Virus record (IMG/VR): IMGVR_UViG_3300046059_000057 | Span: 1-51,430 of that record | From: a virus | Lineage: Duplodnaviria > Caudoviricetes | Strand: one strand, 5' to 3' | DNA length: 51,430 nucleotides | Shown: piece after piece, positions 31,198 to 49,420 of the stretch | Layout: each line of letters opens with the position of its first letter | Numbering within the stretch: the first letter of the stretch is position 1 | Position numbers and translations under genes: made by a program | The notes under the pieces: generated by a model | What the model was told of the DNA's origin: nothing | The model's database searches: none | Seen by the model: only the letters and a program-made list of their open reading frames with translations

Positions 31198-32784
31198 TCA
31201 CCATACAAGCCTCGTTCGACCGGTCTTCGACTCCGCCTTAGCCGCCCAAACTGCCATGTATGCGGCGTCAAGTAAATCCGGCGATCGGCCTAATTGTGAC
31301 CTAATACTATCCTTAGACGTAGCTTTCAAAACCTCGCCGTCCCGACTGCTATAGTATTTCTCCTCGAACTCAACGCATCGGCCAGCCGCGAGTAACTCCT
31401 CTCTAAGACGTTCATTCGTGAAGATACCTCCTTCGTCGAAAAACCGGCCTAAATGGAACAATCCTTCCGCCCATTTGTCGTAATACTGGCTTTCAACCAA
31501 CGGTTTAGAGCCAGCGGAGAACCTTACGGTTTCCGGATAAAAGGTACGTATCCTATCCGCTAAACCGGAACCCTCACCTTGAGCGTCAACAGCGAAATCC
31601 GGTGTGATATTCAAACCGTCGGTATGCGCACGTACCAACGTCTCATTTCGGTTATGATCGACGCCCTGCCACCGATCCAGAACAACGATCTCACCGTCGA
31701 AGACACCGGCTAAAGCGTTCCAATCCCCGCCAGCTCTCGCCACGTCAAGGCCTAAACCGTCGGGGGCAATATTATCGGTGTCTCCACCGGGCACCCGTTG
31801 TACGTACGATTCCTCGACATCTGCGATGGTGAAAGGCCTGTACGCCCCCGCGGACTCCGGTGGTATAACTCCGGCGCGTCGTCGGTACCACCGTTCGTCT
31901 AAATCATCCCGTTCAACGTGAGCGTACTCCGCTTTCTCAACACCCGGTGTTAACACATGAACGGCCTTTTCACGTGGGATTTCACCGGCGGTTATCCGTC
32001 GTTCAACCTCCGCCATACCCGGCCAATCTTTCGGAGTCTCCGGCCACGGCTCCCCGTTCCAGCTTTCATAATCGGAGGCGATTGTCACGAGGTCGGTTAA
32101 ACCGGGGATTCTATCGCTCTTTTCACCGATATCGACGAGCACGTTGTGTGACTCAAACGTCGAAAATTGAATCACGTGCCATCTCTCCGAACGCATCTTC
32201 TCGTACACGACGTTGCCTTCGTCTCTCGGCGGATTAGCGATAGCGATAACCCGATCGTTCTCATCAGTCACCGACGAATTGGCAGAATCGAAGTGTTCGG
32301 TGGTAATATACCGTTTATCCGCTTCTTCGATGACGATCAGAACATGGTCGTCATGCCGACCCTCTAAGTCACCGGGGTCCCGAGGGCTAACCGCTTTAGC
32401 GTACCAGTCATCGTCAATCTCAAGTCGTGGTGGATTCCCTCGACGGAGCTGACCCGGTAGTACAGCGTTTTTCTTCGCATTCCTAAACGTTTTTCTAAGT
32501 GGTCGCCACATCGTATCACGGAACTGCGAATAACTTCCAGAAGTGCCGAGAACCGTGCTATCCAAGTTAGTCAGTACGAAAGCCAGAATCAAGTTAGCAA
32601 CGGCATACGATTTCCCGACGCCATTACCGGAGACAACGAGGGTTCGTTGATTGTTTGTTACGGCGGAAATTATGCGTTCTTGGGTTCCAGAAAGCCGGGT
32701 ATCAAGCACTTCGTCAATAAAACGAATATACCGATCCTCACCCGTTGAGAAATCGGAAGGCCGATACTGAACGTCTTGACTCAT
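31198..32784 (-). CDS. terL: Terminase large subunit
   Basis: Walker A SGNGVGKS, Walker B VIEEAD, nuclease GLDVARAGGD and SPDLLDA. Confidence 0.92.
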   Translation of the reverse strand: MSQDVQYRPSDFSTGEDRYIRFIDEVLDTRLSGTQERIISAVTNNQRTLVVSGNGVGKSYAVANLILAFVLTNLDSTVLGTSGSYSQFRDTMWRPLRKTFRNAKKNAVLPGQLRRGNPPRLEIDDDWYAKAVSPRDPGDLEGRHDDHVLIVIEEADKRYITTEHFDSANSSVTDENDRVIAIANPPRDEGNVVYEKMRSERWHVIQFSTFESHNVLVDIGEKSDRIPGLTDLVTIASDYESWNGEPWPETPKDWPGMAEVERRITAGEIPREKAVHVLTPGVEKAEYAHVERDDLDERWYRRRAGVIPPESAGAYRPFTIADVEESYVQRVPGGDTDNIAPDGLGLDVARAGGDWNALAGVFDGEIVVLDRWQGVDHNRNETLVRAHTDGLNITPDFAVDAQGEGSGLADRIRTFYPETVRFSAGSKPLVESQYYDKWAEGLFHLGRFFDEGGIFTNERLREELLAAGRCVEFEEKYYSSRDGEVLKATSKDSIRSQLGRSPDLLDAAYMAVWAAKAESKTGRTRLVW

Positions 32785-33394: not shown

Positions 33395-34066
33395 TCAATC
33401 TTCTACCAAGTCCTGTCGCCAGACCGCTAACGCGTCCAATTGAGCATCCGTTTCTTTGGTAGCACCAATATCCCGGAGTATCCGCACGAGGTCCTTGTTA
33501 TACTGCCGGATGTGTGTTAACATCCGGTTTTCGACTTCAAACGTGCCATCCGGTGTACGGACCCGCTCGATTAAACCCTCTGTAGCGAAGTGCTCGGAGG
33601 CTTGCACGGATATGTAGAGCATTACCGCCACCCGCCGTGCTAAGATTCTATCCACGTAATCAACGCCACCGGTGTTTTCGCGGATTCTCTCAAGCACCGA
33701 ACGGCTCGCCGTTAGCACGAAGTCACGGGCCTCCGGTTCAAGGTCTTCGTGCATCCGGCTTGGGTCCGCCGAAAGACCGTAATCTTGAGCGTTAGACCGT
33801 GTCACCTTCAAACCGGCTTCCGTTGGACCCGGGTTATTACCCCCGCAGCCCTCACAGCGTCCTTCGCCCGGGTGGTCAGTACCCTTACCCGCCGGTTCCT
33901 CGCAATATCCCCAAAACAATCCAGTCTCGCTCGATCGTTTTGCGTTACAATACTTCCCCGGCGGTTTCTGCGGGACCTCGGGACACGGTGTACCGTACTG
34001 GGGATCGGAGTCCGTTCGGTACCCAGACCGGTCGTTCAGCGCCTCAGCGCATTCATTATCGCTCAT
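33395..34066 (-). CDS. Terminase small subunit-like protein
   Basis: Upstream of terL; C...GTDHPGEGRC..CGG (HGGxSTG-like) N-terminal motif; helical C-terminus. Confidence 0.65.
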   Translation of the reverse strand: MSDNECAEALNDRSGYRTDSDPQYGTPCPEVPQKPPGKYCNAKRSSETGLFWGYCEEPAGKGTDHPGEGRCEGCGGNNPGPTEAGLKVTRSNAQDYGLSADPSRMHEDLEPEARDFVLTASRSVLERIRENTGGVDYVDRILARRVAVMLYISVQASEHFATEGLIERVRTPDGTFEVENRMLTHIRQYNKDLVRILRDIGATKETDAQLDALAVWRQDLVED

Positions 34067-34070
34067 TCGT

Positions 34071-34559
34071 TCATCCTTCCGTTATACCGTCGGCTAAGCC
34101 GTTCGTTGTTTCAAGAGCTTCTTGCGTCGCTTCCTCGAACAATCGATCGTCGGCAAATTGCTTCGATGGATCGGTTTTCAACGTTTCCAATTCACCGATA
34201 AACGCTTCTTGGTCGATTTCCACACCGAATTCCACGTACCGTTCGTACAGATTCCCAGCGTACGAAAAGAACAACTTTTTGGGTAACGGTCGGAGTTGTT
34301 CACCCGACGGATAACCGCAGGCACAGTAGTTACGTAAACCCTGTGAAGCAACGTCTTCTGGCACGGATACCCGATTCGCACGAACTGGATATGAACGATC
34401 CGGTAAATCGACTTTCCGATGCCATGTCTCCCACTCGAATTCATCGACCTTATACGTGTCTACGGCGTAGTTACGTTCGAACGAGTGATGCGTACGTCTG
34501 AAACAATTACCGCAGATATCGGCGTTTGATTGAACCGTTCGGAAGAGCATGGCTATCAT
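34071..34559 (-). CDS. Hypothetical zinc-binding protein
   Basis: CGNC and CACG motifs. Confidence 0.7.
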   Translation of the reverse strand: MIAMLFRTVQSNADICGNCFRRTHHSFERNYAVDTYKVDEFEWETWHRKVDLPDRSYPVRANRVSVPEDVASQGLRNYCACGYPSGEQLRPLPKKLFFSYAGNLYERYVEFGVEIDQEAFIGELETLKTDPSKQFADDRLFEEATQEALETTNGLADGITEG

Positions 34560-34635
34560 CGTCCAGCCGCCGGCTGGTGTGGAAACAGCTCCGGTTTATC
34601 GGTACCGGAGGTTATGCCATCGTAAAACTGCGATC

Positions 34636-34650
34636 ATATTAAAGTTTACC
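34636..34650 (-). promoter_or_regulatory. Archaeal BRE/TATA-like promoter for the packaging operon
   Basis: Minus-strand GGTAAACTTTAATAT, similar to the histone promoter. Confidence 0.45.
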
Positions 34651-34702
34651 CGAATACCGTCTAACAGCCGCTCAACCGTACGAAAAACGAAAACGTGGAA
34701 CC

Positions 34703-34876
34703 TTACAAATCGCGGGCTTGAATAGTCACTCGACCGTTTGCTTCCGCTCGCTCACCCGCTCGTGCGAGTTCCTCTTTCACGAGCTCGTCGAGTTCTTGAT
34801 AAATCCCTTTACCGACTTGATAGTCGTCCGGAACGAAGTCGTGCACCTTGGTTTTAACGATTAGCACATCGCTCAT
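34703..34876 (-). CDS. Histone-fold protein (57 aa)
   Basis: MSDVLIVKTKVHDFVPDDYQVGKGIYQELDELVKEELARAGERAEANGRVTIQARDL; C-terminal A..NGR.TI..RDL histone signature; AGGAG SD; below the ORF-track cutoff. Confidence 0.8.
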   Translation of the reverse strand: MSDVLIVKTKVHDFVPDDYQVGKGIYQELDELVKEELARAGERAEANGRVTIQARDL

Positions 34877-34925
34877 GTGTTACTCCTGCTGTCGGTTGAC
34901 AGCGGGTTTACGTTGAACGGCGGTA

Positions 34926-34940
34926 TATATAAACTTTACC
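34926..34940 (-). promoter_or_regulatory. BRE/TATA promoter of the histone gene
   Basis: Minus-strand GGTAAAGTTTATATA about 50 nt upstream of the ATG. Confidence 0.65.
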
Positions 34941-35061
34941 GTATGTAACGAACGTTCGTCCGAAGACACGAAAAACCGTCAGCCCCGGTTACAGGATACA
35001 AGTGTGCCCTCCGGTTCTTTAACGGTTGAGCTTTTGAACCGACGGGTTCCGATAGATCGAT

Positions 35062-35216
35062 GGTTCTAAATCTGTAAGTACGATGAACGGCGGAGGGGAC
35101 GTCCTCCCGATTATTAGTTTCCCCCGACGGTTGAACGGTTCTATTAACGGTAGTCCGTATTTTTCGTGGGTACCGAAGGCTCTAAGTCTATAAGTACGGT
35201 AAACGGCGAAGGGTAC
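35062..35216. repeat. Imperfect 39-bp direct repeat pair
   Basis: 35062-35100 vs 35178-35216, 32/39 identical. Confidence 0.75.
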
Positions 35217-35463
35217 TGGAAACCTGTTGTTACCGTAGTAAGGTATTAGGGGTGTTTCCCGGTTGACACCGTCGTCCGGCGTTCTATCGACGAAATTGAC
35301 GTCGAGATACGTTTATTGGTGATGCGTCACCCGGTGATCGCTAACCCGGAGACCGCGAAAATCGATGTCGGGTTTCAATCAAAATCCAGTACCCCCGACG
35401 GTACAGGCGCTCTACGACCGAGGGGACGTCCCTTCCTGAATACTTATAGCTCGAGGGCGCTGC

Positions 35464-37626
35464 TCAGTCGACGTTACACCGCCCCTCCGACCGATGCCTC
35501 CGCCATTCCGTCATGGTTACATAACCCGTCGAACAATCGGAGCAGTAATACATCCCACGGGATTCTTCGACGTTCTTGATATGCGATAACACTTCGTTTA
35601 AGACTTCGGATATACGGTATTCCGTTGAGATTTCGGTGACTTCTTCATGTAAACCGAAGTACGTCACCATTGACGGCACGATACAAACGTGTTTTTCTCC
35701 TTGTCCGGCGCCTCGAAGCATCATATTGTGAACTTCGATCTCCTTCGAGTACCGTCGCATATCCCGACATTTCTCCGTTGTTCCGTCGGTTCTATCATTC
35801 GCTTGATAGTCCCATACACCCGCTTGAAAGTCCGTGCTACGGACGATTGTTACGTTCGTCGGTAAGTCGATTCCCCGGCTTATCCTACTACCGGGATAGG
35901 AGGTTATTGCATACCCTATACCGGCGACATCGTCGTAATGACTGCGTTCCGCATTCGAATTAAAGAAATAAGATGCCGGTCCTAACCGTTGATGAGTCTT
36001 CTCCGCACGTAACCCGGAGCCTGCGAAAATCGGATGCGGGATACGTTCCTCCGCCAACTTCTTTGAAACATCCGTCATAAACCGCCGTCTTTCGTATTCA
36101 TCACCGTCGTCACACGCTACCATGAGAATCTTCAAATCCTCGAGGTCGGTATCCTCCGCCCCAAGGTCCTTATACTCCGCCGGTTTATCGTATTTACTGG
36201 CGAAGTCCTTAGCCATAAGGTCCCCGACGAGCCAGACGTTCTCCGCGTTTTCAAACGCTTCCTTATTCACGAGAAAATCGGAGGTCGGGTCGGGAATAAC
36301 CCGGACATCGTATTTCTCTCCTGATTGAATGACTTGGATTTCGGGGTTAAAAAACGCTGCTTCAAGCGCTTGTGAAGCGCTGAACCGGTGGTAGTCCATC
36401 CGTATTCTGTCAAACGTAGCCGACTGCTCTGAAACCGGTCCTTCGAAGTCTATTTGACCGGGTTCTATATCCCGGAGGTATTCTATGTAACCGTCGGTTT
36501 CCGGGCCGTCGGCAAAGTCGTAGTCAATCGCCGTTTGAACGAGTTCATCAAGCCATTCACACGCGTTCTTAACGTTCCGGTATCTCGATGCAACGCGTTC
36601 TAACTCATCGATTTTATTCTGCTCACGGCTAAGAACGTTACTAACGTTCTCCTCCGTGACTTTCAAATCGACGGTGAAAGCCGGTCCAACCAATGAATTC
36701 GACGGATGAATCTCCGCCAGCTTAAAGCCTGAAGGCCGGAAGTATCCCTGCGTTGATTCCTCGTCTATTATCACTTGGTACCGTTCAGGAAACGTTGAAC
36801 TACCCGTTATCCGGTAGAACATCTGAGCGACGCAAACGATCGTGTCAGCGTGCTCCATCGCGAACTTCGAGGCATAATAAGCACAAGCGTCTTTACTCCG
36901 GAAACTCGACGGTTGAACAACGTCATTCTTCGCCGCTACGTCCCTCGCAGCATTCTTTATCCGATTGAACGCAGAACCGCCGAGCTCGTGGTCACATTCG
37001 TCGGAACAGTATTCCGTTGCACGGTCCTTACCCTTCGGGATAACGACGGTATCCGGAGAAACGCCATATTTACCGCCACTTAAGTGATTACCGACGGTTT
37101 CGTCAATTTGCTCGTAATTATTGTCAATAATAATCGGAACACCGCCGGAGCCATCGGTGTAACTTTCGAACGCCGCATTTATACCTTTCGTAGTCTTTCG
37201 GCTGAAACGCGGCGGACCATCGATGATATGAGTATGCCTACGGGTATGAAAGTCTTCACCGTCTTTAAGGTCTGTAACACCGAACCCACCGGTTTTACCT
37301 ATCCGACGTTCAAACGCTTCATTAAACACTTCATCGATTTCGTTGATAGAGTCGGTGATATACAGAATCGGTGCCCCTTTGTAAACGAATAAGTGGATGT
37401 AATACGGCTTTCCCTCCGATGTATCGATGATTGGGTATCCGCGTTTGTTCGCGTAGTCAATGTGTCGAAATGGCGAGTTAGTATTTACGAGCTCTATCCG
37501 GTCGAAAAAGGTTTCAACATCCGATATAAAACGTTCTTCGAAGTCGATTTTCACCGTTTCTTCGTCAACTGGACCGTTTTCCTCAAGCCACCGGTCACTC
37601 GCCGACTGAAGCTTCTCCACCGTCAT
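35464..37626 (-). CDS. Divergent SF2 (DinG/XPD-like) helicase-like replication protein
   Basis: CAYY...ADTIVC, VIIDEES and ISRGIDLP motifs; atypical Walker A GPPRFSRKTT; C-terminal C2H2-like finger. Confidence 0.6.
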   Translation of the reverse strand: MTVEKLQSASDRWLEENGPVDEETVKIDFEERFISDVETFFDRIELVNTNSPFRHIDYANKRGYPIIDTSEGKPYYIHLFVYKGAPILYITDSINEIDEVFNEAFERRIGKTGGFGVTDLKDGEDFHTRRHTHIIDGPPRFSRKTTKGINAAFESYTDGSGGVPIIIDNNYEQIDETVGNHLSGGKYGVSPDTVVIPKGKDRATEYCSDECDHELGGSAFNRIKNAARDVAAKNDVVQPSSFRSKDACAYYASKFAMEHADTIVCVAQMFYRITGSSTFPERYQVIIDEESTQGYFRPSGFKLAEIHPSNSLVGPAFTVDLKVTEENVSNVLSREQNKIDELERVASRYRNVKNACEWLDELVQTAIDYDFADGPETDGYIEYLRDIEPGQIDFEGPVSEQSATFDRIRMDYHRFSASQALEAAFFNPEIQVIQSGEKYDVRVIPDPTSDFLVNKEAFENAENVWLVGDLMAKDFASKYDKPAEYKDLGAEDTDLEDLKILMVACDDGDEYERRRFMTDVSKKLAEERIPHPIFAGSGLRAEKTHQRLGPASYFFNSNAERSHYDDVAGIGYAITSYPGSRISRGIDLPTNVTIVRSTDFQAGVWDYQANDRTDGTTEKCRDMRRYSKEIEVHNMMLRGAGQGEKHVCIVPSMVTYFGLHEEVTEISTEYRISEVLNEVLSHIKNVEESRGMYYCSDCSTGYVTMTEWRRHRSEGRCNVD

Positions 37627-37675
37627 TAACGAACCTCGGTTTTTCGGGGACCGGAATTCCGGTGGTTATTCGAAA

Positions 37676-38689
37676 TTACCGCCATAGAGTCACCCCGCTG
37701 AACGGATGTCGTCTTCCGCATTCAAACGGACAGAGGTCATTTTCTTGTACGGTTTCACACGATATAACGTCATCATCCGTTACGAAACCGTTATTCCGTG
37801 CGTACTGTTTAATCTCGCCCATTGGCGTATATCCGACCGCCCAATCGCCGCAGTTTATAATGCCGGCTTTAACGCCGATGAGGTGGTAAGCGTTACCGGT
37901 TTCCGAATGTCGCCAACACCGGAACGTTTCCCCGCCTTCGTCGACCCGGAAGTTAGAACCTGTAGATGACGGTGAATCGTGGAGAAAATTCGGTGCCGAG
38001 ACGTTGGAACCTTCGGGAAACCGTGACTTGTCAAGAACACGGTAAACCGAAATCTCATCAACTTCACCGTGCTTCGCTCCCGAGACTAATTTGTCAGCGA
38101 ATTCTGTGTCGACATCGACTGCATTAGCGAGACATGGCGGGGAAGTCTTTGCGTGTATCCCGTCGGTTGCACCGGAGTTAACGATGGTTCCTTGGGTATG
38201 CTTTACTCCAAACGACCGGAAAACCGGTAACTCACGTAGTAATTCCGTTGAAACCTTCGTCGGTTTAACGTCGTTTTGGACAGTATACTCGTTGGTTGGC
38301 CGCGCTAAGGCATACCCCCGGGCAACGTCGCCCTTAAGGTCTACATTATCGATTACGTGAGACGTGTTATCGAATTCAGCATCCGTACGAAGATAAACGT
38401 GCAACCCACCTGACGGCGTTTTTACAATACGGGTGTCGTCGAGTAAACCGTACCATCCGTACTCAACGCTCGCTTTTTCCGCATCCGTCATCTTGTATAA
38501 ATCAATATCGATGACAAGTAAATCCGACGTCTTATTACCCACAACCGCCCACCAATCGTGCTTTGAATCCTTAACTTCGACGGACTCAACAACGAAGGCT
38601 TCCGTGGGATCGACCGGCCAACCCCCGAATTCGGCAACCGGTCGTTTTGACTCCGGTTGAACCGGAATGTAGTAATATGAGTCCGTCAC
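37676..38689 (-). CDS. Primase-polymerase (AEP, Prim-Pol family)
   Basis: LLVIDIDL and TPSGGLHVY motifs. Confidence 0.85.
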   Translation of the reverse strand: MTDSYYYIPVQPESKRPVAEFGGWPVDPTEAFVVESVEVKDSKHDWWAVVGNKTSDLLVIDIDLYKMTDAEKASVEYGWYGLLDDTRIVKTPSGGLHVYLRTDAEFDNTSHVIDNVDLKGDVARGYALARPTNEYTVQNDVKPTKVSTELLRELPVFRSFGVKHTQGTIVNSGATDGIHAKTSPPCLANAVDVDTEFADKLVSGAKHGEVDEISVYRVLDKSRFPEGSNVSAPNFLHDSPSSTGSNFRVDEGGETFRCWRHSETGNAYHLIGVKAGIINCGDWAVGYTPMGEIKQYARNNGFVTDDDVISCETVQENDLCPFECGRRHPFSGVTLWR

Positions 38690-45976: not shown

Positions 45977-48900
45977 ATGAAAGACCCAACGGAAGTTGAC
46001 GTCGAGTTGCCGGAGTTCCTCGATATATCGTGGGGTTGGCAGGATAGCGAGGCTAAGTTGAAGTTACTCACGGAGTCTGACGGTGTTGTGTACCGTGATT
46101 TACCGTTCCGACCGTACTGTTATATGCGTAGGAGCGAAGTGACTGAGGAAACGTTGAAATCTATCCGTGAAATCGATGAAACGGCGGAGATCGTTGAGAC
46201 TTCGGACTACTATCAGGGCGACTTGTATCGTGTCCACGTATCTTATCCGACGTTGATTCGTGAGCTACGGGAAACCGTAGATATCGAGACCCTACAGTCG
46301 GATGTGCCGTACAGTCGGAGGGTACTCATAGACCTCGATGAATCGGTGTCCGAGCCCTCAAGAGTGCTATCCTTCGATTTGGAGGTAAAAGCCGATGAAG
46401 GGTTCCCTGACGTCGAAGAAGCCGAACAACCGATTTTAACGATCGCTGCCGTTGGCTCCGACGGTCAAGAGTATACGTTCGGAAGTGATAACGAACGGGA
46501 AACTATCAACCGGTTTCTCGACGTTGCAAAGGAGTACCGGGCGATTATGGGCTGGAACTCGATACGGTTCGATTTTCCGTATCTCGAGAACCGCTGCCGC
46601 CGGTTAGACGCCGAGGGTTCAGAGGTGGAATTGAACTTTGACCCGTTCAGCTTCGTTCATGTGGACGCTTTCCCGACGTACCGCCGGATTCTGATGAAAG
46701 GCGGTCAATCGTATGCGCTTGAAGACGTTGGTGTGTACGAGTTCGGTGATGAATTCGGTGGGTATCCAGAAGTCGATTATTCGGCTCTCGAAGAGCTGTT
46801 CCACGAAGACCGTGAACGGCTTATGGAATACAATCTGTCGGATGCTCGGGTCGTGAAGCGGTTGAACGATCGGTATCAATTCAAGAAGATAACGTTCGGT
46901 ATACTCGCTAAACGGGGTCATTGTCGGCCTTCTGATATATTTTTCGTCCACGGTTTCGAAGGCGGTTTCCACGGGTATCGTGAGGTTGATAAAGCGAGTA
47001 ACACGCTTATTGAAGGCATCGTTATGTCGTTGTCTAACGGTGACCACGGGCCGGAAGTCGTTTGGCCTAATCAGATACGTGACCATGAGGTAGAATTCGA
47101 GGGTGCAAAGGTTCTCGACCCGAAAGACGGCCTTCATTATAACGCGATTACCCTCGATTACGCGTCGATGTATCCGTCCATTATTGATGCTTTGAACATC
47201 GGTCCGGAGACGTATCGAGACGGTAATAAAGGCGAAATCAAAGGACCAACGGGTTCATTCGTTAAAGAACCGAAAAGCCGGTTCTCCGAGGCTTATCACG
47301 TGATGAAAGATGAACGGGATACGTATACAAACCTCAAGAAGTCGCTTCCCCGTAGTCATGACGAATATACGATCGTTGAGTCTTTAGACGCGGGGCTTAA
47401 AACGTACGTTAATTGCTTCGTACCGGAGACAACCGTTGTTACTCCAGATGGAATAAAGAAAATCGGAAATATAGAGGTCGGAGACGACGTTTATTCGATA
47501 AATCCGGAAACATATGAAACCGAAGTAAAACCGGTGGTAGATACGTATGAACGAAAGTATGAAGGTCCGATGTATCACATTAACAACGCTAACTACGAAC
47601 AAAAAGTAACACCGAACCATCGGTTCCTCGTTGATGAATACGACGGGGAGCTATCTGCACCCTCGTCGGATTTCAACGAAATTAAGGACATGGACGAACG
47701 GTATGTAATCCCTCGTAATAAACCCTTAACCGGTGATACACCGCCGGAGGTAGATTTAGCGGAGCTCGCGGATACCGGTGAAGTGCTATTGGAGTATACC
47801 GTTGATTATAGAACTGTAAACGCGGAATTCGATATTGACGGTGAACGTATGGCTTGGCACGAAACCGACGACCATACAGTTCGGTTGATAAGGATTTCGT
47901 TAGACGAATATTCGTCAAATAGAGTGGAAATAAATCGGCTTATTGAGTCCGAATACGTCGAAAGAACGTTTTATCGATATGCCGAAAAGCACACGAAACA
48001 ACCGCTGAAGATCGACTCCATCGAATTTCTGAAGGTCGTCGGTTGGTACGTTGCAGAAGGCGGTGAAAAGAATATCGACGGTTCGGCGGTAATATACCAA
48101 CAGGACCGGAATGATACGCTTAAAGAAGACCTCGATAACGCCGGTTTAGAGTATAAAGCGTACGATAAAGGTGTTCAAGTCCCCGGAGGTATAGGCGCTG
48201 TACTGTCGAAATACTTCGGGGATAAGTCAGAGAATAAACGGTTACCCGAGTTCTTATACGACTGGGACGGCGGTGACTTATATTGGTTATTCCACCGGTT
48301 GTGTCTCGGAGACGGTCGGATGACAGAACGCGGGAATCCGGCGAGTTATGTGACTAAAAGTACGGAACTACGAAAAGACGTTACGAGGCTCGCTGTTCAT
48401 GTAGGTACAATACCGAAGGATACGGCCCGAGATGTACGGTTCTTGAACGAACACAAGTCACGGTGTGATACGATAGACATGGAAAGAGACGTCGAAATTG
48501 AACAGTACGATGGAAAGGTACAATGCGTTACAGCGGAGGATAACCACACTATACTTGCGGGTTTGAACGGAAGGTGGGGTTGGACGGGACAAACGTTCTA
48601 CGGAGTCATAGGCAGCGGATATTCGAGGTTTTATTCTAAACCGGTGGCTGAAGCCATTACACTCATGGGTCAGAAACTCGTGGATAAACTCGCTGAACTT
48701 GCGGAGGAACGGGACTTGAAGGTTATCTACGGGGATACGGATTCCGTGATAATAGGACTCGGCGAAAACCCGGAGGAAGACCCCGTGAAACATGGCAAAC
48801 GCTTAGCCGACGAATTCACCGCTGAAATTAAGAATTGGGTGGAAGATGAGTTTAACGGGTTCCCAGACCGTATAGACGTCGGTTTAGACGAGGTCTATGA

Positions 48901-49420
48901 AACGTTCTATATCACGGATGTAAAGAAGCGCTATGCGGGAATATGCGTATGGGACGGTGCATCATGCTATGAGTACGATAGAACCGGATTTAAGTCAGTC
49001 CGCGGGGATACATCCGAAGCCGTGGCTAACTTCGTGGATGATTTACTCCGTGCTATACTCCTTGAAAACGACGTTTGGGACGTTGTTCAAAACTACCGCG
49101 AGAGGCTCTTTAACGGTGAATTAGACGATTCCTTGGTGAATGCGGTGAGCCTCCGGAAACCCGTGGAGGAATACGATAGCTGTCCGCCTCACGTTAGAGT
49201 AGCGCAGAACTGCGATGATAACATCCGTGTCGGCGACCAAGTACCGTACTTGAAGTACGGTTCAGACCCGAAAGACGTCGTTTATGCACCTGAAGGCCCG
49301 CCGGAAGAGTACCTTACAAATGCGACATACCGGTGGATGTGGAAAAAGCACTTCAAATCGTGTATGGACAACATGAACGTTTCTAAGCACGAGAAAACGG
49401 TACTGAGTGATTACGCATGA
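45977..49420 (+). CDS. polB: Family B DNA polymerase with intein
   Basis: SFDLEV, DYASMYPS, K...N/TFYG and YGDTDS motifs. Confidence 0.95.
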   Translation: MKDPTEVDVELPEFLDISWGWQDSEAKLKLLTESDGVVYRDLPFRPYCYMRRSEVTEETLKSIREIDETAEIVETSDYYQGDLYRVHVSYPTLIRELRETVDIETLQSDVPYSRRVLIDLDESVSEPSRVLSFDLEVKADEGFPDVEEAEQPILTIAAVGSDGQEYTFGSDNERETINRFLDVAKEYRAIMGWNSIRFDFPYLENRCRRLDAEGSEVELNFDPFSFVHVDAFPTYRRILMKGGQSYALEDVGVYEFGDEFGGYPEVDYSALEELFHEDRERLMEYNLSDARVVKRLNDRYQFKKITFGILAKRGHCRPSDIFFVHGFEGGFHGYREVDKASNTLIEGIVMSLSNGDHGPEVVWPNQIRDHEVEFEGAKVLDPKDGLHYNAITLDYASMYPSIIDALNIGPETYRDGNKGEIKGPTGSFVKEPKSRFSEAYHVMKDERDTYTNLKKSLPRSHDEYTIVESLDAGLKTYVNCFVPETTVVTPDGIKKIGNIEVGDDVYSINPETYETEVKPVVDTYERKYEGPMYHINNANYEQKVTPNHRFLVDEYDGELSAPSSDFNEIKDMDERYVIPRNKPLTGDTPPEVDLAELADTGEVLLEYTVDYRTVNAEFDIDGERMAWHETDDHTVRLIRISLDEYSSNRVEINRLIESEYVERTFYRYAEKHTKQPLKIDSIEFLKVVGWYVAEGGEKNIDGSAVIYQQDRNDTLKEDLDNAGLEYKAYDKGVQVPGGIGAVLSKYFGDKSENKRLPEFLYDWDGGDLYWLFHRLCLGDGRMTERGNPASYVTKSTELRKDVTRLAVHVGTIPKDTARDVRFLNEHKSRCDTIDMERDVEIEQYDGKVQCVTAEDNHTILAGLNGRWGWTGQTFYGVIGSGYSRFYSKPVAEAITLMGQKLVDKLAELAEERDLKVIYGDTDSVIIGLGENPEEDPVKHGKRLADEFTAEIKNWVEDEFNGFPDRIDVGLDEVYETFYITDVKKRYAGICVWDGASCYEYDRTGFKSVRGDTSEAVANFVDDLLRAILLENDVWDVVQNYRERLFNGELDDSLVNAVSLRKPVEEYDSCPPHVRVAQNCDDNIRVGDQVPYLKYGSDPKDVVYAPEGPPEEYLTNATYRWMWKKHFKSCMDNMNVSKHEKTVLSDYA
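47414..48592 (+). mobile_element. Intein with LAGLIDADG-type homing endonuclease in PolB (393 aa)
   Basis: Begins CFVPET after KTYVN; block B TPNHRF; GWYVAEG and LCLGDG; ends WTGQ before T-FYG. Confidence 0.9.

Follow-up and report, generated by a model that had tools for sequence, protein, structure and literature searches.

The question raised by a short open reading frame (ORF) on the minus strand of IMG/VR virus record IMGVR_UViG_3300046059_000057 is whether a tailed virus encodes a histone of its own, of which type this histone would be and what the virus would do with it. The window, i.e. the stretch of DNA analysed here, is the whole record of 51,430 bases, linear and estimated to be 90% complete. 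The ORF (34703-34876) starts with ATG and encodes 57 residues with the N-terminus MSDVLIVKTKV and the C-terminus RAEANGRVTIQARDL. A first-pass annotation of this DNA had proposed a 57-residue singlet histone here, and our analyses confirm the ORF, its context and both terminal strings, which match those quoted exactly. We suggest that this gene belongs to a haloarchaeal tailed virus, so far uncultured, that it is transcribed on its own and that it probably encodes a histone of the face-to-face (FtF) type, which would form a ring tetramer, bind DNA non-specifically and bend or wrap it; this degree of confidence applies to the identity of the protein and to its mode of action, and we are less confident of its biological role.

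The ORF is a real gene that is kept under purifying selection in three related uncultured viruses. Histone homologues are encoded at the equivalent position in two other contigs, L002 (an IMG/VR record of 35 kb, estimated to be 62% complete, with the same contig represented again as L085) and L086 (a metagenome contig of 2 kb). The proteins are identical at 31 of 54 positions between the window and L002, at 34 of 57 between the window and L086 and at 42 of 54 between L002 and L086. Across these three pairs, the proportion of synonymous differences (pS) is 0.48-0.87, which is near saturation, and that of nonsynonymous differences (pN) is 0.13-0.28, giving pN/pS ratios of 0.28-0.35 in all three; the combination of a high pS and a low pN argues for purifying selection on the protein. 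Homology and selection both point to the minus-strand frame, and two opposite-strand ORFs of 48 and 39 residues were rejected on this ground. An entry identical to the histone protein, called from a contig of 51,430 bases, is already present in a public protein collection; one gene caller or more has thus picked up the gene, which the first-pass annotation had described as missed by the ORF track.

The assignment to the histones comes from relatives, profiles and models. A word-index homologue search gave no match besides the histone protein itself. By comparison, a HMMER scan of 1.84 billion cluster representatives retrieved 24 proteins at E≤1e-3, i.e. the query and 23 relatives, among them singlets of 55-77 residues, proteins of 97-130 residues with two matched stretches and one protein of 122 residues in which a single histone fold follows a long acidic N-terminal extension. 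At least weakly (E≤1), 22 of the 23 relatives match the Pfam family CBFD_NFYB_HMF and 19 match DUF1931, with a few of these matches exceeding the Pfam cut-off. Ten of the longer proteins, all from metagenomes (P0002-P0008, P0013, P0022 and P0023; 97-130 residues) carry two α3-truncated histone folds in tandem, and these tandem proteins are among the best matches to the viral singlet.

A profile of 14 rows built from the histone protein and 13 singlet relatives (profile A1) gave as its best match in the PDB the FtF histone HTkC of Thermococcus kodakarensis (9f2c; E 2.2e-16), followed by HLp (9qt0; E 1.9e-9), HBb/Bd0055 (8cmp/8fvx; E ~1e-8) and HmvA (4e-5); NF-YB, HMfA and others were weaker, with HMfA and HMfB at E 0.016-0.33. 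[quoted passage not shown] The predicted α3 has three residues (54-56) and the chain stops at L57, as in the α3-truncated histones of Schwab et al. 2024. In the Foldseek search against the PDB, chain A of HTkC (9f2c_A) was the top match (template modelling score 0.79, root mean square deviation 2.4 Å, 36% identity) and the first eight rows were all HTkC, HBb and HLp chains, at E-values (≥0.014) that are weak, in keeping with a chain of 57 residues. The fold search against BFVD gave only weak matches to giant-virus histones (E≥0.16). A comparison with HMf and Bd0055 histones had been proposed as a check on the annotation; it returned a predicted histone fold, with HTkC as the best match, Bd0055 in the next tier and HMf weak. 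The profile, the predicted fold, the Foldseek search, the oligomer model described below, synteny and selection agree with one another, and the core of the first-pass annotation, a short α3-truncated singlet histone encoded by a virus, is supported.

The type of the histone is indicated by signature residues and by an oligomer model. Schwab et al. define FtF histones by a ring tetramer, and the conserved FtF residues in the Haloferax protein D4GZE0 are R41, N45, R47, T49 and D54 (PMC11390915). In an alignment of 26 rows that includes host proteins (A3), the viral residues R43, N47, R49, T51 and D56 align with the halobacterial R41, N45, R47, T49 and D54, and the viral chain and the halobacterial proteins share a terminal RDL. 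R43 and N47, which correspond to the Arg/Asn contact of FtF histones, are invariant and at least 90% conserved, respectively, and R49, T51 and D56 of the RxTxxxxD motif are invariant. R43 also aligns with R45 of HTkC, and the HTkC R45A mutant is a dimer by size-exclusion chromatography with multi-angle light scattering (bioRxiv 10.64898/2025.12.06.692711).

When modelled in four copies, the protein scored 0.70-0.71 in three runs, with 0.01 for the best control, at least 95% of the contacts common to the runs and a partner pLDDT of 76-77. The scored chain has an extensive handshake interface with one copy and a small second interface, formed by residues 42-43, 46-47 and 55-56, with another. Predicted errors are lowest at this second interface (0.8-1.2 Å), and the pairs with the least error are 43-43, 47-47 and 43-56. 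The model thus predicts the arrangement that characterizes the FtF ring tetramer, i.e. two handshake dimers joined by the end of α2 and α3, and given that the contacts 42-43/46-47/55-56 are those of the published FtF dimer-dimer interface, we file the protein as FtF-type. The first-pass annotation had likened it to Bd0055-type histones. That likeness holds in so far as HBb is among the top fold and profile matches; the presence of R43, N47 and an RVT motif together with the predicted tetramer contact differs from the bacterial dimer histones (HBb/Bd0055), and on these residues and this model the viral protein is FtF-type and not Bd0055-type.

Most other classes fit less well. The phage histones of Schwab et al. 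2024 and VTTHFP of Liu et al. 2025 resemble the viral protein in the α3-truncated fold and in their occurrence in tailed-virus contigs, but they have a tetramerising C-terminal helix and lack RxTxxxxD; the viral protein is the opposite on both counts, with nothing after α3 and the motif in place. VFFHFP (Liu et al. 2025, PMC13681535), FtF-like proteins of tailed viruses in IMG/VR, are a borderline class: they share with the viral protein the FtF-like fold and the predicted tetramer, and they are said to carry a lysine-rich N-terminal tail of 5-40 residues, which may define the group or just describe it. There is no such tail here, only MSDV preceding LIVK, where the fold of the window protein starts. 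HMf and HpyA have an α3 of about 10 residues and HpyA has two folds; the viral protein has 57 residues, one fold and an α3 of three residues.

The first-pass annotation had set the protein apart from the fused-doublet HpyA of haloarchaea. By description this contrast between one short-α3 fold and a doublet stands; what it missed is a nearer relative, which our comparisons indicate to be the 55-residue FtF/DUF1931 histone of halobacterial chromosomes and plasmids. A scan of GTDB with one genome per species gave 600 candidate stretches, 308 of which encode a relative, and 80 loci were kept. By name 79 of the 80 are haloarchaeal and one is from an Aenigmatarchaeota metagenome-assembled genome; 78 are genes of 55 codons, and the other two matches are a few codons shorter. 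There are two main host forms, one chromosomal and one that is identical in 26 of the 80 loci, from many genera. The latter form also occurs on 83 PLSDB plasmid records, where it is annotated as "DNA-binding protein" or "DUF1931"; on two plasmids the gene is divergent from an adjoining helix-turn-helix regulator gene. Its identical sequence in locus L010, in 25 other GTDB loci and on plasmids looks like that of a mobile gene that has spread recently and widely. Schwab et al. report that Halobacteria have one chromosomal FtF histone besides further ones carried by plasmids, and propose an FtF histone as the main chromatin protein of Halobacteria (PMC11390915); the same halobacterial proteins form the "acidic miniature" cluster 4 of PMC13260811.

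The viral protein and the halobacterial FtF histones (HVO_0196/VNG2273H, DUF1931) have in common a single α3-truncated fold of 55-57 residues, an acidic composition, the R, N, RxT and D signature, a full-length identity of 47-56% (over the kept host loci) and a ring tetramer, which is predicted for the viral protein. The viral protein differs in being encoded by a tailed virus, in having one additional N-terminal residue and one in L1 (P16, found in all three viral proteins), in a YQV motif in L1, in G41 (AGERAEAN) where the hosts mostly have Ala, and, in the window, in H12 and V50, which replace host K11 and K48 (RKT), and in the added K10 and K23. In a tree of 62 rows and 55 columns, 47 of the 59 inner forks of which are unresolved, the viral rows lie on long branches (0.69-0.84) outside a tight host clade (80/85 support) and do not pair with each other; the median end-branch length over the tree, which consists mostly of host rows, is 0.02, the host FtF histones being nearly invariant. 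The viral protein is, as judged from these alignments, a diverged relative of the halobacterial mini-histone.

How the protein would act can be outlined by comparison with HTkC and HLp, the only FtF-related histones in the cited work for which DNA binding and wrapping (~50-60 bp) have been shown: HTkC wraps DNA with a compaction about twice that of hypernucleosomes, and HLp wraps about 60 bp. HTkC is the best match of the viral protein by profile and by fold, and its tetramer arginine R45 corresponds to viral R43. It differs in having a His where the viral protein keeps the Asp of RxTxxxxD, in an L1 that is three residues longer and in being a cellular protein with a basic surface. Of the ten DNA-contact residues seen in the HTkC co-crystal, five are identical in the viral protein (K8, K10, V21, R49 and T51) and one position (T9) is conservative. 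In the mechanism that we propose, two chains would form a histone handshake dimer, and two dimers would join into a ring tetramer by means of the C-terminal end together with R43 and N47. This ring would bind DNA non-specifically, using the N-terminal stretch of α1 (K8, T9, K10) and the L1/L2 loops (V21, K23, T51), and would bend or wrap about 50-60 bp as HTkC and HLp do. The virus would use the protein during infection as a DNA-architectural protein of its own, and the location of the gene between the replication and packaging modules makes replicating or to-be-packaged viral DNA the likeliest target. We infer that the protein binds DNA, and likewise which DNA it targets and when it acts; the functions that the first-pass annotation had put forward, i.e. 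compaction or protection of viral DNA or remodelling of host chromatin, are of the same standing.

Several points weigh against this reading. Pfam and PHROG scans of the 57-residue protein alone gave no family even at E≤10, and the histone family is visible only via relatives and profiles; a single-sequence search of the PDB likewise gave weak matches (9f2c at E 0.0015, Bd0055 at ~0.02). Of the proteins solved as pairs, 20 of 30 pass the oligomer score mark, as does 1 of 23 of those solved as single chains, but this calibration was made with two copies, not four, and the four-copy pass may arise because the model has memorized the HTkC tetramer structure (9f2c). At the position of the α1 lysine (K11 of D4GZE0), the window protein has H12 and the L002 and L086 proteins have Arg; this lysine is a strongly conserved FtF residue but not a group-defining one for Schwab et al., and α1 of the window protein has the invariant K8 as well as K10. 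Changes are seen at four of the ten HTkC DNA contacts (K11 to H12, R22 to Q20, K52 to V50 and Y55 to Q53), with the halobacterial host proteins likewise lacking the L1 arginine, and the protein is acidic (net charge -4, pI 4.7; host proteins -8). We infer a rearrangement, not a loss, of the surface that contacts DNA. With the viral rows outside the host clade and the tree unresolved, the tree shows no capture from a host, and neither a donor nor a time of capture can be assigned. The link to replication and packaging stems from gene order alone, in three related contigs, and the reading is computational throughout, from sequence and models.

The neighbourhood of the gene bears on its expression and on the nature of the virus (Table 1).

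Table 1. Positions of the histone gene, its flanking elements and the neighbouring packaging genes in the window.
Feature	Position	Strand	Basis
Coding sequence of the 57-residue α3-truncated, putatively FtF-type histone-fold protein	34703..34876	-	ORF listing, profile, AlphaFold2, Foldseek, pN/pS
Putative archaeal promoter: GGTAAAG, like a transcription factor B recognition element (BRE), and TATA-like TTTATATATA	34924..34940 (BRE 34940-34934; TATA 34933-34924)	-	sequence
Hairpin/inverted repeat GCTGTC-AACC-GACAGC, candidate 5' leader stem-loop or operator	34888..34903	-	RNA fold z -4.0
Shine-Dalgarno (SD)-like AGGAG, 6 nt before ATG	34883..34887	-	sequence; weak evidence
Terminator-like T-runs TTTT (34693-34690) and TTTTT (34687-34683), 10-20 nt past the stop codon	34683..34693	-	sequence
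15-nt repeat TACGWTGAACGGCGG, copy 1 of 3, abutting the TATA box	34909..34923; others 35079-35093, 35195-35209	+	repeat search
Second promoter-like block, GGTAAAC TTTAATAT, preceding ORF162 and the packaging genes	34636..34650	-	sequence
ORF162, conserved CxxC...CxC protein	34071..34559	-	homologues follow the histone gene in L002 and L086
Terminase small subunit TerS	33395..34066	-	phrog_9231, E 2.3e-12
Terminase large subunit TerL	31198..32784	-	phrog_2, E 2.3e-20

A strong promoter of BRE/TATA type and an SD sequence had been claimed for the gene in the first-pass annotation. The BRE/TATA-like block is conserved in all three loci, the SD-like AGGAG is present in the window and was not seen at the L002 or L086 loci, and the word "strong" is unsupported. 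In the window the TATA-like TTTATATATA ends 47 nt before the ATG. Given that the window contains 55 A/T runs of 8 or more, a TATA-like sequence by itself would count for little, and it is the conserved position that counts: relative to the ATG, a block AAAG-N(1-2)-TTA begins at -61 in the window, at -64 in L002 and at -61 in L086. As a repeated viral promoter the motif was not significant in the window (4 matches, 1.55 expected; 8 of 100 shuffles equal). Each of the three loci has a leader hairpin, 10-25 nt ahead of the ATG, with stems that differ (z -4.0 in the window, -1.9 in L002 and -3.5 in L086), and T-runs follow the histone stop codon in L002 and L086 as well as in the window. Oligo-T acts as an archaeal terminator. 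With a promoter-like block, a leader and T-runs of its own, the gene appears to be separately transcribed and looks like its own transcription unit; the promoter and the leader hairpin would place the transcription start near 34900-34905.

Upstream, a non-coding stretch of 587 nt (34877-35463) contains a 43-nt direct repeat (35058-35100/35174-35216, 81% identity) and near-palindromes around GGGGACGTCC (35092-35109, 35419-35436). A pattern search with the 15-nt repeat TACGWTGAACGGCGG gave 3 matches where 0.42 were expected, one of the three lying elsewhere in the window with 2 mismatches. This stretch could be an operator, a replication origin by the primase-polymerase (prim-pol) block or a packaging site.

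Downstream, ORF162, TerS, TerL and the portal gene follow the histone gene on the same strand, and the position upstream of the packaging genes that had been noted for the histone gene holds. The gene lies between the packaging block, whose strand it shares, and a block with prim-pol and a 720-residue ORF (35464-38689). The order of the histone gene and ORF162 is kept in all three loci, with TerS next in the window and L002. The leader of ORF162 (window 34560-34650; L002 340-465; L086 1130-1244) is conserved and structured, with two hairpins (CCTCCG...CGGAG and CCAGC...GCTGG) and 19 predicted pairs, five of which show compensatory changes among three sequences only; an Rfam scan of 34000-36000 gave no match. 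The second promoter-like block has a core, GTAA-N-CTTTA, that shows no variation among the window, L002 and L086. ORF162 itself has an invariant CGNCFRRTH and a C-x-C-G-x-P motif and nine further metagenomic homologues at 59-68% identity; it matched no Pfam or PHROG family, and its AlphaFold2 model (pLDDT 60.6) is of too low a quality to be used in a fold search.

Among 49 ORFs, Pfam and PHROG scans identified genes for a tape measure protein, a tail-fibre N-domain, an HK97-like major capsid protein, MuF, portal, TerL and TerS, and, on the other arm, for an intein-containing family-B DNA polymerase, a Cas4-like nuclease, ThyX, thymidylate kinase, uracil-DNA glycosylase, a methyltransferase, an ERCC4-HhH nuclease and prim-pol. 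In the polymerase gene (45977-49420), Intein_splicing and HINT matches fall at residues ~480-570 of 1147. No integrase turned up among the 49 ORFs in these general scans, and a tRNA scan of the window found no tRNA genes. The major capsid protein is 40% identical to that of Halorubrum phage Hardycor1, and TerL is 43.7% identical to that of Halorubrum virus CGphi46, 36% to that of HATV-3 and 34% to that of Halobacterium phage ChaoS9. This likeness to haloarchaeal viruses in capsid and TerL points to a haloarchaeon as the host, and by its gene content the contig is a haloarchaeal tailed virus. The G+C content is about 50% throughout the window. Among haloarchaea such a value is low, Haloquadratum and nanohaloarchaea excepted, and it may be a hint at the host.

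The histone gene is an accessory of one uncultured lineage and not general to haloarchaeal tailed viruses. A profile of 26 rows, for which the L002 record served as a positive control (2e-25), matched none of the four cultured relatives Hardycor1, CGphi46, HATV-3 and ChaoS9; the 14-row profile A1 had matched the window's own record at 5e-27. Short-pattern scans of IMG/VR, which are no proof of absence, found one other viral contig of the lineage only and no host-type FtF gene in viral contigs. A tblastn search with the viral histone gave no match in phages and plasmids, at a sensitivity at which a 100% identical hit of 55 residues reaches ~60 bits and relatives of ~55% identity are invisible; with the host plasmid-type protein, for which relatives of ~55% identity would be similarly undetectable, tblastn gave no match in phages, nor did megablast with 25 kb of the window. 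The nine further ORF162 homologues suggest that the virus lineage is not rare.

What the virus would gain from such a protein can be read in other ways. First, the viral protein could interfere with host chromatin by mixing with the host FtF histone in heterodimers or mixed tetramers and, owing to its altered DNA-contact surface, loosening or re-programming the chromatin during takeover in place of organising viral DNA. The host FtF histones are nearly invariant and the long viral branches nevertheless keep R43, N47 and the C-terminus, the window protein has H12 and V50 at the positions of the host DNA-contact lysines K11 and K48, and the host protein that would be joined is the proposed main chromatin protein of Halobacteria (PMC11390915). 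The changes are, however, inconsistent among the viruses, with L086 keeping RKT and both L086 and L002 having an Arg in α1, and the window protein gains K10 and K23, so that its basic surface is moved rather than lost. We therefore consider interference with host chromatin unlikely.

Alternatively, the protein could be a packaging accessory, either by bending DNA at the start of packaging for the terminase or as a packaged protein that orders the DNA in the capsid. IHF bends DNA at lambda cos. An accessory of this kind would be in agreement with the order of the histone gene and the CxxC ORF in all three loci, with TerS next in both loci that reach that far, and with conserved inverted repeats in the short stretch that separates the histone gene from ORF162; moreover, a cryo-EM paper on HFTV1 speculates that histone-like proteins might order the inner DNA layers (PMC12494034). 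Against this, gene order alone is weak evidence, the promoter- and terminator-like signals of the histone gene do not obviously place it in a packaging operon, and the lack of a profile match in the four cultured relatives implies that packaging in this group does not need a histone, leaving a packaging role only a slim chance.

A Bd0055/HBb-like dimer that only bends DNA, with no tetramer, is the kind of protein to which the comparison proposed in the first-pass annotation pointed: the fold is α3-truncated, the length is similar and HBb chains rank near the top by fold and by profile. Bacterial dimer histones are described as lacking the dimer-dimer Arg/Asn and as carrying RKT (PMC11390915), however, and the viral protein has R43, N47 and RVT. 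The profile match to HTkC is better than that to HBb by eight orders of magnitude, and the four-copy model makes the FtF contact at its lowest predicted errors (0.8-1.2 Å), which makes a dimer of this type very unlikely. Finally, it is highly improbable that the protein is a histone fold that no longer binds DNA and serves as a protein-protein adaptor or as a specific regulator of viral genes, possibly at the 15-nt repeats by its own TATA box: its acidity, the Gln in place of the minor-groove L1 arginine of HTkC, the three upstream repeats with one abutting the TATA box and the report that haloarchaeal HpyA affects gene expression rather than packaging (PMC8682779) would fit this, but halobacterial FtF histones are equally acidic and also lack the L1 arginine, T51, R49-D56 and the α1 lysines are kept under purifying selection, and the repeats are not comparable in L002, where the upstream region is cut at the contig end.

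We favor, then, an FtF-type ring tetramer that acts as an architectural protein on viral DNA. Viral FtF-like histones as such are already known: the histone-fold proteins of Caudoviricetes described from IMG/VR 4 form six clusters, among them FtF-like ones with lysine-rich tails (PMC13681535), and "phage histones" with a C-terminal helix have been described (PMC11390915). The main text of PMC13681535 contains no occurrence of Halobacter* or haloarchae*, the review PMC9145170 has no passage on phages or archaeal viruses, and a full-text search of the literature found no paper describing an FtF/DUF1931 histone gene in a haloarchaeal virus. What is modestly new is the tail-less and acidic form, the haloarchaeal host range and the conserved place next to the terminase genes.

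A bolder scenario, which we regard as rather unlikely, is that the lineage chromatinises DNA with its own ring mini-histone, either as a histone that travels with the genome or acts at the start of packaging, or as a variant subunit in host FtF tetramers that rewires host chromatin. The terminase-adjacent place, the kept interface and the reshuffled contact lysines are compatible with the packaging form and the host-tetramer form alike. If true, the packaging form would be a histone taking part in the packaging of a tailed-virus genome. The protein is in any case a concrete candidate for the "histone-like protein" about which the HFTV1 work speculates in archaeal capsids (PMC12494034). As a copy that keeps the ring interface, as far as the model predicts it, and changes the DNA contacts, the viral protein offers a natural variant for asking which residues matter, and with a gene that is small and easily expressed these questions are directly testable. 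The catalogue of histone-fold proteins of tailed viruses is extended here to haloarchaeal viruses, in a tail-less and acidic form.

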